Shown here: one piece after another, positions 1 through 2,698 of the stretch
How the letters are laid out: every line of letters begins with the position of its first letter
How positions within the stretch are numbered: position 1 is the stretch's first letter
From: a virus
Lineage: Duplodnaviria > Heunggongvirae > Uroviricota > Caudoviricetes
IMG/VR virus record: IMGVR_UViG_2681813421_000010
Strand: one strand, 5' to 3'
Length of the DNA: 5,598 nt
Position numbers and translations under genes: made by a program
The notes under the pieces: model-generated
Database searches by the model: none
What the model saw: only the letters and a program-made list of their open reading frames with translations
Told to the model about the DNA's origin: nothing

Positions 1-267
1 TTACTCTGCAGGTGAAGTCGGCCACTCAATATCAGGTGCGGTTGATGTATCAACACGGTTCAGCAACACCCGATACTTCTTCCAGGCTTCCAGCAACGAG
101 TTTTCTTCCTCCGTTGCGATCTCCAGATCTACAGCATCCTGAAGTGGCGCAATATGCTCACTGAATTCCTGGATGTAGAACTGTGTGGTGACGGTCTTCC
201 AGCCATTCGGCTCCTGCTGTATCGAAGCATACCAGGCTATTTCAATATCGCTATGCTGCGGCAGCAT
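1..267 (-). CDS. Short Tfa-like ORF (88 aa): the C-terminal ~55 aa is a conserved tail fiber assembly protein C-terminus, the N-terminal ~33 aa is unrelated; probably a tfa remnant
   Basis: Minus-strand ORF with ATG at 265-267 and TAA at 1-3. The C-terminal part ([50 protein letters not shown]) matches the conserved C-terminus of enterobacterial prophage Tfa proteins as I recall them. The N-terminal part has no Tfa resemblance and the ORF is less than half normal Tfa length (~190 aa). Confidence 0.6.
20..92. repeat. 73-bp direct repeat, copy A (conserved tfa 3' end)
   Basis: 20..92 matches 1069..1141 (offset 1049) with 2 mismatches (positions 40 vs 1089 and 79 vs 1128); both are synonymous in the minus-strand tfa frame. 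Confidence 0.9.
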
Positions 268-275
268 TTAACCCC

Positions 276-304
276 TTGTAATTCATCGCCATAATTGATT
301 TAAT
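276..304 (+). promoter_or_regulatory. Candidate sigma70 promoter for the methyltransferase gene
   Basis: TTGTAA at 276-281 (-35-like), 17-bp spacer, TTTAAT at 299-304 (-10-like), in the AT-rich 56-bp divergent intergenic region. Sequence match only. Confidence 0.2.
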
Positions 305-323
305 TCATAAACAAAACTATAAC

Positions 324-992
324 ATGGTGAAATTAATGAAAAAAAACACACATGATGGGGCTAAAATTTACACACCACTTACCCTAAAGCTTTATGACTG
401 GTGGGTTTTGGGAGTATCAAATCGTCTTGCATGGGGATGTCCTACAAAGGAACACCTTCTTCCACACTTTCTGGAACATTTAGGTAACAACCATCTGGAT
501 ATTGGTGTTGGAACTGGGTTTTACCTTACTCACGTACCTGAGAGTAGTCTGATATCTTTAATGGATTTGAACGAAGCTAGCCTGAACGCGGCATCTACAA
601 GGGCTGGGGAATCAAAAATTAAACATAAAATTAGCCATGATGTTTTTGAACCTTATCCCGCGGCGTTACATGGTCAATTTGATTCCATTTCCATGTTTTA
701 CCTTCTTCACTGCCTGCCTGGAAATATATCTACAAAAAGCTGTGTAATACGCAATGCTGCGCAGGCCTTAACTGACGATGGAACTCTATACGGAGCCACA
801 ATTCTTGGCGATGGAGTTGTGCACAATAGCTTCGGTCAAAAACTGATGCGCATTTACAATCAGAAAGGCATCTTTTCAAACACAAAAGATTCCGAAGAAG
901 GCTTAACACATATACTCTCAGAGCATTTCGAGAATGTTAAAACCAAGGTTCAAGGTACTGTAGTAATGTTTTCCGCTTCAGGGAAAAAATAG
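324..992 (+). CDS. Class I SAM-dependent methyltransferase (Rossmann fold), prophage moron of unknown substrate
   Basis: 222-aa ORF. Motif I LDIGVGTG (GxGxG SAM-binding loop), acidic residue after beta-2 (LMDLNE), and motif II/III-like segments (FDSISMFYLLHCLP, LTDDGTLYGATI). Alternative start at ATG 336 has a GGTGA Shine-Dalgarno 5 nt upstream. Visibly AT-rich compared with the tail genes. Resembles the methyltransferase-like genes found beside tfa fragments in E. coli K-12 cryptic prophages (ybcY/yfdM type, from memory). Confidence 0.8.
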   Translation: MVKLMKKNTHDGAKIYTPLTLKLYDWWVLGVSNRLAWGCPTKEHLLPHFLEHLGNNHLDIGVGTGFYLTHVPESSLISLMDLNEASLNAASTRAGESKIKHKISHDVFEPYPAALHGQFDSISMFYLLHCLPGNISTKSCVIRNAAQALTDDGTLYGATILGDGVVHNSFGQKLMRIYNQKGIFSNTKDSEEGLTHILSEHFENVKTKVQGTVVMFSASGKK

Positions 993-999
993 CATCCAA

Positions 1000-1032
1000 C
1001 CGCAGCACGTTCTTGCTTAAGACGTGCTGCGG
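1000..1032. terminator. Strong stem-loop between convergent genes (possible bidirectional terminator)
   Basis: Perfect 11-bp inverted repeat CCGCAGCACGT (1000-1010) / ACGTGCTGCGG (1022-1032), with further pairing possible inside the 11-nt spacer. Lies between the methyltransferase stop (992) and the minus-strand tfa remnant stop (1047). A T-run follows on the minus strand only after a ~10-nt gap; no T-tract on the plus strand. Confidence 0.35.
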
Positions 1033-1046
1033 CATAATCCCAATGA

Positions 1047-1139
1047 TTACTCCCTGACAGGGTTCGTAGGCCACTCAATATCAGGTGCAGTTGATGTATC
1101 AACACGGTTCAGCAACACCCGATACTTTTTCCAGGCTTC
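1047..1139 (-). pseudogene. tfa 3' remnant (encodes [30 protein letters not shown]), fused in frame to an invertase fragment
   Basis: My own minus-strand translation of 1139 down to 1047 (stop = reverse complement of 1047-1049). Tfa homology begins exactly at the E-A-W codons. This is copy B of the 73-bp repeat. Confidence 0.7.
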
Positions 1140-1141
1140 CA
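1069..1141. repeat. 73-bp direct repeat, copy B (conserved tfa 3' end)
   Basis: See copy A; 71 of 73 positions identical. Confidence 0.9.
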
Positions 1142-1281
1142 CCACCAGCACGACAAAATGCCGCATACAGTGACCCAGTCAGTCCAGTTTCCAGACAACT
1201 AGTGCGTCACCTTTTTGAAGGCGCTTTAAAGCACGTTTTAATCCAGGTCGGCCTGTCCTTGTTCCGCTTAATTTATCTTCA
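1140..1281 (-). pseudogene. pin: DNA invertase (Pin/Gin/Cin/Hin-family serine recombinase) internal fragment; in-frame TGA; 5' end lost in the N-run, 3' end replaced by tfa
   Basis: Minus-strand translation from the gap edge gives [46 protein letters not shown]. This matches residues ~32-78 of Gin/Pin invertases as I recall them (Gin ...[43 protein letters not shown]...). A TGA sits where Arg (CGx) is expected. The catalytic-Ser N-terminus and the C-terminal helix-turn-helix are absent. Confidence 0.75.
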
Positions 1282-1348
1282 NNNNNNNNNNNNNNNNNNN
1301 NNNNNNNNNNNNNNNNNNNNNNNNNNNNNNNNNNNNNNNNNNNNNNNN
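1282..1348. other. Run of 67 N (assembly gap or masked sequence)
   Basis: Literal n characters. Both flanking genes (invertase fragment on minus, tail fiber on plus) are truncated at the gap edges. Confidence 0.99.
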
Positions 1349-2221
1349 TTCAAATGGAGAAGCCGCCATGGCACCACAACAAAAGACCTGATGAATCTTA
1401 AATGGGGTGCTTTGTATGTTCTTGTTAAAGCCCTTTTCGGCAGTGAAGTAAAAATATCGACAGTCAATGCACTGAGGATTTTTAATTCATCCTTTGGTGC
1501 TATTTTTCGCCGTTCTGAAGAACACCTGCATATCATCCCTACACGAGAAAATGAGGGTGAAAATGGAGATATTGGGCCATTAAGGCCATTCAACATCAAC
1601 TTAAGAACAGGAGTTGTGTCTGTTGGTAATGGTGCCAGGATTGATGGCGGGCTGGCACTTGGCACGAATAACGCGTTGGGTGGGAACTCAATTGTTCTTG
1701 GTGATAATGATACCGGATTTAAACAGAATGGTGATGGTATTCTTGATGTTTACGCTAATAGTCAGCGAGTATTCCGCTTTCAGAATGGAGTGGCTATTGC
1801 TTTTAAAAACATTCAGGCAGGTGATAGTAAAAAATTCTCGCTATCCAGCTCCAACAACTCCACGAAGAACGTAGGGTTTAATTTATGGGGCACTTCATCA
1901 AGACCAACTGTTGCAGAGCTTGGTGATGATTCAGGCTGGCATTTCTATAGTCAGCGAAATACAGATAACTCAGTAACATTTGCTGTTAACGGTCAGATAC
2001 AGCCCAGCAACTGGGGGAATTTTGATTCCCGCTATGTGAAAGATGTTCGCCTGGGTACGCGTGTTGTTCAATTGATGGCGCGTGGTGGTCGTTATGAAAA
2101 AGCCGGACACGCAATTACCGGATTAAGAATCATTGGTGAAGTAGATGGCGATGATGAAGCCATCTTCAGGCCAATACAAAAATACATCAATGGCACATGG
2201 TATAACGTCGTACAGGTGTAA
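1349..2221 (+). CDS. stf: Side tail fiber protein (Stf), C-terminal portion; 5' end missing at the gap
   Basis: Open frame from the gap edge to TAA at 2219-2221. The product (...GVVSVGNGARIDGGLALGTNNALGGNSIVLGDNDTGFKQNGDGILDVYANSQRVFRF...IIGEVDGDDEAIFRPIQKYINGTWYNVVQV) resembles the C-terminal domains of enterobacterial prophage side tail fibers as I recall them. Followed 3 nt later by tfa, the usual stf-tfa pairing. The first in-frame ATG is at 1391, but the gene is most likely 5'-truncated. Confidence 0.75.
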   Translation, partial: FKWRSRHGTTTKDLMNLKWGALYVLVKALFGSEVKISTVNALRIFNSSFGAIFRRSEEHLHIIPTRENEGENGDIGPLRPFNINLRTGVVSVGNGARIDGGLALGTNNALGGNSIVLGDNDTGFKQNGDGILDVYANSQRVFRFQNGVAIAFKNIQAGDSKKFSLSSSNNSTKNVGFNLWGTSSRPTVAELGDDSGWHFYSQRNTDNSVTFAVNGQIQPSNWGNFDSRYVKDVRLGTRVVQLMARGGRYEKAGHAITGLRIIGEVDGDDEAIFRPIQKYINGTWYNVVQV

Positions 2222-2224
2222 TTT

Positions 2225-2698
2225 ATGCAGCATTTAAAAAATATTAAGTCTGGAAATCCAAAAACAAAAGAACAATATCAGCTAACAAAGAATTTTGATG
2301 TTATCTGGTTATGGTCCGAAGACGGTAAAAACTGGTATGAGGAAGTGAAAAACTTTCAGCCAGACACAATAAAGATTGTTTACGATGCAAATAATATTAT
2401 TGTCGCCATCACCAAAGATGCCTCCACGCTTAACCCTGAAGGTTATAGCGTCGTTGAGGTTCCAGATATTACAGCCAACCGCCGCGCTGATGATTCCGGT
2501 AAGTGGATGTTTAGGGACGGAGCTGTGGTTAAACGGATTTATACGGCAGACGAGCAACAACAACAGGCCGAATCACAAAAGGCCGCATTGCTTTCCGAAG
2601 CTGAATCAGTCATCCAACCGCTGGAACGCGCTGTCAGGCTGAATATGGCAACAGACGAGGAACGCACACGACTGGAAGCATGGGAAGGGGGCCCGTGA
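2225..2698 (+). CDS. tfa: Tail fiber assembly protein (Tfa), C-terminally truncated at the conserved LEAW motif (157 aa)
   Basis: Starts MQHLKNIK..., typical of one Tfa family, with AGGTG Shine-Dalgarno 9 nt upstream. Tfa-like through ...[15 protein letters not shown], then ends EGGP* instead of the conserved [21 protein letters not shown] tail, which is found on the opposite strand at 1..92 and 1047..1139. Confidence 0.85.

Follow-up and report, generated by a model that had tools for sequence, protein, structure and literature searches.

A truncated Gin/Pin invertase gene fused in frame to the end of a tail-fibre assembly gene beside an invertible prophage segment

Introduction

The locus described here is most closely related to two well-known switches: the G segment of phage Mu, with its invertase gene gin and its gix sites, and the P segment of the e14 element of E. 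coli K-12, with the invertase gene pinE. In Mu, the constant part of stf is followed by a recombination site, two variable stf-tfa cassettes lying tail to tail, a second site and the 5' end of the invertase gene. In e14, an intact pinE is followed by mcrA. Din invertases can stand in for one another and recombine foreign gix, pix and hix sites in trans (PMC12529663; PMC4272514). PinQ of Qin inverts the e14 segment in trans (PMC12529663), and Fin of Fels-2 acts with Hin on the Salmonella H segment (Kutsukake 2006, as cited in PMC4272514).

We analysed a stretch of 5598 nucleotides from a viral record (IMGVR_UViG_2681813421_000010), the whole of which we call the window. The locus it belongs to has the same layout as Mu G. 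The first 190 or so nucleotides of its invertase gene are 93–95% identical to Mu gin, and its invertase-side site agrees with Mu gix at 25 of 26 positions. Unlike in Mu, the host element is a lambdoid prophage (with J, lom and stf), the invertase ends at codon 77, where it is fused to tfa, and inversion must rely on an enzyme encoded elsewhere. The likeness to e14 lies in the 27 nt before the joint, which are of the pinE type and include a Chi octamer, and in an older form of the joint with a pinE-like 5' part; in contrast to e14, everything beyond codon 77 has been replaced. In the PinQ/e14 and Fin/Hin systems the segment's own invertase is also intact, whereas here an orphan segment is left with a stump. 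In kind, this is an ordinary and already annotated pseudogene in a well-known type of phage switch. We think it likely that this DNA is the scar at the right end of a lambdoid prophage with an invertible tail-fibre segment of the Mu G or e14 P type.

A truncated invertase read in one frame with tfa

The features on which the argument draws are listed below in window positions. L001 is the matching locus in the complete chromosome of ETEC E. coli L1_E925 (NZ_LR883050.1), our reference.

1–267, minus strand: second tfa remnant, without its N-terminus; the final prophage sequence before potB in the reference
17–95 and 1066–1144: 79-nt direct repeat of tfa 3' ends, 95% identical (family D3), bracketing the methyltransferase gene
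324–992, plus strand: class I SAM-dependent methyltransferase cargo gene (Pfam methyltransferase domains; PGAP)
1047–1141, minus strand: tfa 3' remnant, last 29 codons and stop, in a frame shared with the invertase (Caudo_TAP match; PGAP)
1142–1281, minus strand: invertase (gin/pin) pseudogene, codons 32–77 visible (translation, Pfam, identity to Mu Gin and gin)
1142–1149, minus strand: Chi octamer 5'-GCTGGTGG-3', the last 8 invertase-derived bases, native to pinE-type genes
1142–1168, minus strand: pinE-type 27-nt stretch (GTATGCGGCAT[T/C]TTGTCGTGCTGGTGG), unlike gin here; overlaps the following patch by 2 nt
1167–1184, minus strand: scrambled patch GAC TGA CTG GGT CAC TGT, codons 64–69, which holds the TGA; transition from gin-like to pin-like sequence
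1282–1348: assembly gap of 67 N, standing for 364 reference bases
1349–2221, plus strand: silent, promoter-distal tail-fibre C-terminal cassette (99.7% identical to L001 8647–9519, 'phage tail protein'; Gp34_trimer match)
2225–2686, plus strand: tfa of the silent cassette, broken off at 2686 (Caudo_TAP E=1.6e-28; identical to the L001 tfa up to 2686)

The minus strand of 1142–1281, with the translation read from 1280, encodes codons 32–77 of a serine invertase of the Gin/Pin family. Altogether, the fusion consists of invertase codons 1–77 and, in the same frame, the last 29 codons of tfa (1047–1141, minus strand). An invertase pseudogene fused in frame to the 3' end of tfa is what the initial annotation had proposed, and domain matches bear out both halves: the invertase part matches Resolvase (PF00239, E=7e-11, over 47 visible residues with the TGA taken as Arg), and the tail part matches Caudo_TAP (PF02413, E=5e-13) at profile positions 104–130 of 131. 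A similarity search with the minus-strand translation of 1140–1281 against invertases was likewise highly significant, which leaves the invertase assignment standing. The full-length chaperone domain of Caudo_TAP is absent from 1047–1141, which is a 3' fragment of tfa only. Existing annotation already covers both halves, as 'recombinase family protein' and 'tail fiber assembly protein, incomplete' in the NCBI pipeline, and PGAP labels 1047–1141 a tail fiber assembly pseudogene. The long plus-strand ORF that overlies the pseudogene (1085–2221) had been called spurious, and for its 5' part this is correct.

With the missing residues supplied by the identical reference, residues 1–77 show about 90% identity to Mu Gin (tblastn E=1e-40). 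At the nucleotide level, identity to the gin genes of Mu-like and Xuanwuvirus phages is 93–95% as far as window position 1183. The catalytic Ser9 (YVRVST motif) and the rest of the first 31 codons fall into the N-run of the window (1282–1348); the Ser9 motif (MLIGYVRVSTNDQ) can be read in L1_E925, whose complete genome matches window 1–1281 without a difference. In the reference, the 364 bases behind the N-run contain invertase codons 1–31, the region upstream of them, the invertase-side gix-type site and the start of the silent stf cassette.

Homology to invertases stops at codon 77 and gives way to tfa, so that helix E and the C-terminal HTH_7 DNA-binding domain are missing. The in-frame TGA that had been noticed earlier is there, at 1179–1181, which is invertase codon 65. 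A stump without helix E, without the HTH domain and with a stop at codon 65 cannot work and is a nonfunctional pseudogene. One could also argue that Pin(1–77) followed by the C-terminal 29 residues of Tfa has a function as a protein, perhaps in regulating inversion, given that the fusion is in frame and that the ancestral open frame of 107 codons has been retained in several lineages. However, the commonest form has the TGA at codon 65, the ST131 copies have more stops, and the fusion has neither the DNA-binding domain nor helix E, which forms the dimer interface. The shared frame is also accounted for by codon-aligned microhomology. We regard a functional fusion protein as very improbable.

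The joint in complete genomes

The window is a gapped draft, and another of its joints, at 2685/2686, is absent from every complete genome. It could therefore be suspected that the fusion is an assembly or scaffolding artefact, a chimeric contig beside the N-run. However, window 1–1281 is 100% identical to the complete chromosome of L1_E925 (L001 7002–8282); the part beyond the gap, 1349–2686, is 99.7% identical to L001 8647–9984. With a 282-nt query spanning the joint and a coverage of at least 80%, the joint was found in 427 of 5426 complete E. coli genomes, and it is also present in many independent assemblies and metagenomes. A base-identical complete chromosome and 427 complete genomes rule out an assembly chimera at the joint. 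The region 1047–1281, for which the initial annotation had asked about assembly error, is hence not chimeric, and the chance of an artefact is negligible.

The joint occurs in prophages at no fewer than three chromosomal sites: adjoining potB (L001 and the strains E54 and E8), near trpA/ompW (ST131, L004) and near bio/ybhB (HeN100, L005). Joint and TGA are unchanged across the copies at these sites. Among complete E. coli genomes, we found no intact ancestor of the window's exact allele; the opened matches of more than 97% identity are all truncated in the same way. The ST131 copy (L004 7001–7260) has decayed further, with TGG changed to TGA in the invertase part and TGG changed to TAG in the tfa part.

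A tail-fibre segment that flips beside a dead invertase gene

The pseudogene adjoins the stf-tfa genes of an inversion system like Mu G or e14 P, as had been suggested. Annotation and protein comparisons in the reference place two stfV-tfa cassettes tail to tail, downstream of the constant 5' part of stf. Two 26-bp gix-type sites lie in inverted orientation 3.1 kb apart (L001 8429–8454 and 11560–11585); the invertase-side site reads TTATCTAAAACCTCGGTTTACAGGAA and the site inside stf reads TTCCTGTAAACCGAGGTATTCGATAA. In the window, one cassette is visible (1349–2686), the gix site by the invertase stump lies in the N-run, and the remainder is cut off at the 2686 joint.

To look for the opposite orientation, we built the flipped junction in silico from L001, joining the stump and its gix site to the other end of the segment. 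An unbroken, full-length match to this junction, with 99.8% identity, exists in 131 genomes; 133 genomes have the native arrangement. Both orientations occur within a Bangladeshi ETEC set, in which E54, E1433 and E1620 are flipped and E8, E1648, E1654, E1739 and E1316 are native. The comparison of E54 and E8 is particularly clear: after 6414 nt of 100% identical left flank, which includes the stump, a segment of 3157 nt is inverted exactly between the 26-bp sites. These alignments argue that the segment flipped recently, and that it did so in genomes in which its own invertase gene was already dead. The locus had been described as the scar of a switch destroyed by recombination. This holds for the invertase gene, which is indeed destroyed, but not for the switch itself, since its sites are intact and both orientations occur.

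The E54 prophage is heavily decayed, with fragmentary upstream head genes, yet its segment is inverted relative to E8. In this strain (L007 8448–12238) the tape-measure gene comes directly after the tail-fibre gene; M, L, K, I, J and lom have been lost, together with the 5' part of stf.

Which enzyme inverts the segment? The gene in cis is truncated, and there is no functional invertase gene in cis beside the segment. A serine recombinase stump of 64–77 residues without helix E and the HTH domain is incapable of inversion. Presumably another Din invertase of the cell acts in trans to flip the segment; this is the simplest explanation, because the segment flips although the stump in cis cannot act. 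Potential donors are common: 641 of 5426 genomes have intact gin-type genes, and in the ST131 strain 4/1-1 the stump and an intact gin-type gene share one genome. In the exact reference strain, L1_E925, we identified no trans-acting invertase and saw one second pin-like match. The pinE gene of e14 can be discarded as the donor there, because e14 is absent from L1_E925. The stump may retain one further part of the switch: over nucleotides 1–190 the gene differs little from Mu gin, and the recombinational enhancer of Mu lies in this part of gin.

The locus thus appears to be an orphan host-range switch, a natural case of a tail-fibre segment that still flips after its own invertase has died. The host range of the prophage, or the surface phenotype, would therefore depend on co-resident prophages. 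To call the switch dead from the neighbouring gene would be a mistake here.

The breakpoint and the Chi octamer

Alignment to intact pin and tfa genes had been proposed as a way to place the breakpoint. An alignment with K-12 pinE, the gin-type gene of phage 520873 and the tfa copy at window 1–267 puts it between 1142 and 1141. With a slash for the joint, pinE reads ...GTCGTGCTGGTGG/AGGAG, tfa reads ...TCGTTGC/TGGAAGCC, and the fusion reads ...GTCGTGCTGGTGG/TGGAAGCC. In codons, these are ...CAT CTT GTC GTG CTG GTG G/AG GAG TTG in pinE, ...AAC TCG TTG C/TG GAA GCC TGG AAG in tfa and ...GTC GTG CTG GTG G/TG GAA GCC TGG AAA at the joint. The joint thus falls at invertase codon 77/78, and one frame reads through both genes.

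The last G of the Chi octamer (1142) is the final base of the invertase, and tfa begins at 1141. The earlier claim that a Chi octamer lies exactly at the junction (1142–1149, minus strand) is accurate in the sense that the octamer ends at the joint. It is also the sole Chi in the window, for which shuffled sequences give an expectation of 0.28. As a special marker of the fusion, however, Chi does not hold up. The same octamer is found at the same codons (V-L-V-E) in K-12 pinE and in pin genes of E. coli and Shigella, and, being an ordinary stretch of pinE coding sequence, it was not created by the fusion. It is missing from gin and from the alleles of Salmonella, Citrobacter and Erwinia. When species-representative genomes were scanned with a 17-mer, most matches were due to chance and lay in unrelated phyla, and only about 10 were relevant.

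RecBCD enters DNA from a break, degrades it up to Chi and leaves a 3' tail that ends in Chi. At the joint, the 5' part of the invertase gene, which lies 5' of Chi on the Chi strand, is kept and the 3' part is lost. The polarity at 1142–1149 therefore agrees with RecBCD entering from the deleted side, downstream of pin.

It could also be imagined that the invertase itself made the joint, at a quasi-gix site in its own gene and in tfa. Din invertases do use quasi-sites, such as the cixQ sites of P1 Cin, and the joints cluster at one position. But the best gix-like 26-mer centred on the joint matches at 12 of 26 positions, against a background of up to 14 of 26 elsewhere in pinE, and the partner positions differ and have no common dyad symmetry. 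With no gix-like sequence at the joint, we reject recombination at invertase quasi-sites as highly improbable.

A mosaic stump with an older, open form

The stump is a mosaic. It is gin-like down to about window position 1184, followed by the 18-nt patch at 1167–1184 and then by pinE-type sequence up to the joint. Most other copies of the joint have CATCTT in the pinE-type stretch (27 of 27 positions as in pinE), and the window and L1_E925 have CATTTT (26 of 27). The patch carries seven differences from either parent, the TGA among them, and is the same in copies at three chromosomal sites. In the ancestral form, GAC AGG CTG GGG CGT AGT stands in its place.

This ancestral form is seen in open Pin::Tfa fusions of 105–107 residues (P0016, P0017), which have the same joint, an N-terminal part that is pinE-like throughout, and Arg at codon 65. 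One locus with the open form of the joint (L011) lies directly beside potB and has no methyltransferase gene. Because the 27 nt before the joint are of the pinE type and the older form is pinE-like throughout, the joint was made in a pinE-type gene. The copies show that it goes back to one old event and now resides at three or more chromosomal prophage sites. The in-frame TGA, correctly seen from the window, is secondary to the fusion, as the older form of the joint is an open frame of 107 codons.

By this comparison, the form in the window is a derived one, in which the 5' part of about 195 nt and the neighbouring gix site were later replaced by gin-type sequence. The TGA patch sits at the point of exchange between gin and pinE. 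Presumably the cassettes were replaced together with the 5' part of the stump and the gix site. The invertase stump and the constant part of stf could serve as flanking homologies for swapping whole cassettes, which would explain that the cassettes of ST131 and ETEC are only 70–80% identical.

Is the octamer a hot spot?

The joint in the window is not the only rearrangement to end in these eight bases. In an e14-like element (L010), pin is joined to tfaE as ...GTCGTnGTGCTGG/ATTAC with 8 nt of microhomology, and the 5' side of the invertase is kept. The 5' side is also kept in two joints to unknown DNA: one to AT-rich sequence (GCTGGTGGA/CGAAGATT), found in several assemblies and one viral contig (L012–14, L205), and one (GTCGTG/TACGTG) found in one short contig only (L210). 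Other joints keep the 3' side and begin at GAGGAGTTG; these are the stfP/pin, cro-like/pin and int-side/pin deletions in e14-like elements (L086–L089), and an internal deletion, GDTLV/EELRER, belongs with them, as do one IS26 end and one IS21-family end. In contrast, about 50 truncated entries of alleles without the octamer (gin type and others) have no joint at the homologous codons.

L010 needs a separate word. Its contig begins inside an inverted repeat, positions 1–300 being an exact inverted copy of 1646–1945, with the repeat starting at the pin::tfaE joint and an N at that joint. A simple reciprocal inversion is rejected as the origin of this joint, given that tfaE is also present at full length together with the exact inverted copy. 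The structure is compatible with a fold-back inverted duplication primed from a Chi-ended tail, or with a mixed population that confused the assembler.

How often events end at the octamer can be asked of the IMG/VR sample, in which 122 invertase 5' ends were anchored on a conserved 17-mer. This set contains the window's joint (7 loci), the AT-rich joint (1), an event at codon 42 (5), one further event and perhaps another. Hence 2 of the 4–5 N-side truncations lie at Chi in this anchored sample. In the 3'-anchored IMG/VR sample, 1 of 3 C-side events lies near Chi; the breakpoints in these genes were called without gaps, and false calls caused by mosaic alleles and small indels were taken out by eye. 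Most of the extra joints were found with protein queries that ended or started near the octamer, which makes that sample a biased one.

Homology-facilitated illegitimate recombination and the protective use of Chi on linear DNA have been described (PMC3240628). A route of this kind to the joint would run as follows. First, a break would arise downstream of pin, and RecBCD would resect up to the native Chi. Second, the Chi-ended 3' tail would prime on microhomology in tfa (TCGT-GCTGG in pin, TCGTTGCTGG in tfa). The observed joint has one TGG more than the simple product of this microhomology. We put forward this origin of the joint, by resection to Chi and priming on tfa, as tentative.

A competing explanation is ordinary microhomology-mediated illegitimate recombination, with Chi as a bystander. 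The codons GTG CTG GTG GAG are very common in E. coli, happen to spell Chi and find in-frame CTG-G matches in numerous genes. The partners do carry CTGG-type microhomology: TCGTTGCTGG in tfa, CGTGCTGG (8 nt) in tfaE, CAGCTGCTT in stfP and GGCTGG in the cro-like gene. An in-frame CTG codon is present in every identifiable partner and could alone explain both the clustering and the in-frame fusions, and every fusion is in frame, as codon-aligned pairing at CTG predicts. Further CTGG sites of pin have been used as well (P0112, P0150, P0140), and the joints that keep the 3' side of Chi map to the octamer too, as do the ends of insertion sequences. Three considerations argue in the opposite direction. 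First, pin has three or more other CTGG motifs in the 50 nt upstream, and these gather fewer joints. Second, little or no microhomology is visible at pin/CGAAGATT and at GCCGCTTT/GAGGAG. Third, the roughly 50 truncated entries without the octamer have no joint at the homologous codons. We judge that this explanation falls somewhat short of an even chance.

There is also evidence that does not sit well with Chi. Three of the deletions keep the 3' side of Chi, which is unexpected under simple Chi protection; under a Chi model, such joints would need to be the reciprocal products of unequal exchange. Overall, we see a causal role of Chi as possible without counting on it, give a pure microhomology hot spot a substantial but less than even share, and leave the remainder to coincidence. 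The broader proposal, that Chi at codons 75–78 of pinE-type genes is a natural hot spot of illegitimate recombination through RecBCD and CTGG priming, seems to us rather unlikely. If it were true, repeated truncations, in-frame fusions, inverted duplications and reciprocal deletions would have one source, the joint in the window would be a widespread fossil of it, and we would have a rare natural record of Chi shaping the mosaic joints of phages.

The structure also fits the usual picture of lambdoid mosaicism, with one homologous crossover on the stf/J side and one non-homologous joint. Typical joints of this kind fall at gene boundaries; the one described here falls within two genes, and its endpoint is a natural Chi. 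That the same eight invertase bases end several independent rearrangements would, if upheld, provide a handle, from sequence alone, on illegitimate recombination linked to Chi or to microhomology. Octamer endpoints would then offer a concrete mechanism for some of the non-homologous joints of phage mosaicism.

Two insertion sequences abut pin inside the octamer, an IS21-family end (...GTTGACA/TGGAGGAG; L211, about 2060–2080) and an IS26 end (...CAGTGCC/CTGGTGGAGG; L212, about 20–40). Given the many IS26 insertions elsewhere in invertase genes, these ends may be there by chance.

An independent Pin::Tfa fusion lies elsewhere in the gene (P0106, ...SLTDSIDT/AKAPDIEWPVSPE), at a DTS motif that is common to invertases (SIDTST) and Tfa (VDTSTAPD). 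Fusions of invertase and tfa therefore recur wherever short similarity exists.

Surroundings of the fusion

In the reference, potB is followed by the tfa remnant (minus strand), the class I SAM methyltransferase gene (plus strand), the fusion of tfa 3' remnant and invertase stump (minus strand) and then the silent cassette. Beyond the stump, the order is the silent stf C-terminal cassette (plus strand), tfa (plus strand), tfa (minus strand), the full stf (minus strand), lom and J.

The window departs from this order at 2685–2686. There, the tfa of the silent cassette breaks after ...GAAGCATGGGAA and runs straight into the last 66 nt of the tape-measure gene, with an overlap of 2 nt as the only link between the two parent sequences. 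After the end of the tape-measure gene, M, L, K, I and J follow on the plus strand. Reference genomes have all these tail genes on the other strand, at a distance of about 12 kb. This tfa-to-tape-measure joint was found in 0 of 5426 complete genomes; either the strain has an inversion of its own here or the draft contig is chimeric.

On the other side of the fusion, PGAP places a 'hypothetical protein' of 45 residues on the minus strand at 937–1074 (WP_001309429.1), which overlaps the 3' end of the methyltransferase gene and the tfa remnant and looks spurious. The methyltransferase gene itself varies among prophages. The lack of this gene in L011 matches what would be expected of recombination between the 79-nt repeats. 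In ST131 (L004) it is split by an IS66-family element, and in HeN100 (L005) a diguanylate cyclase gene takes its place.
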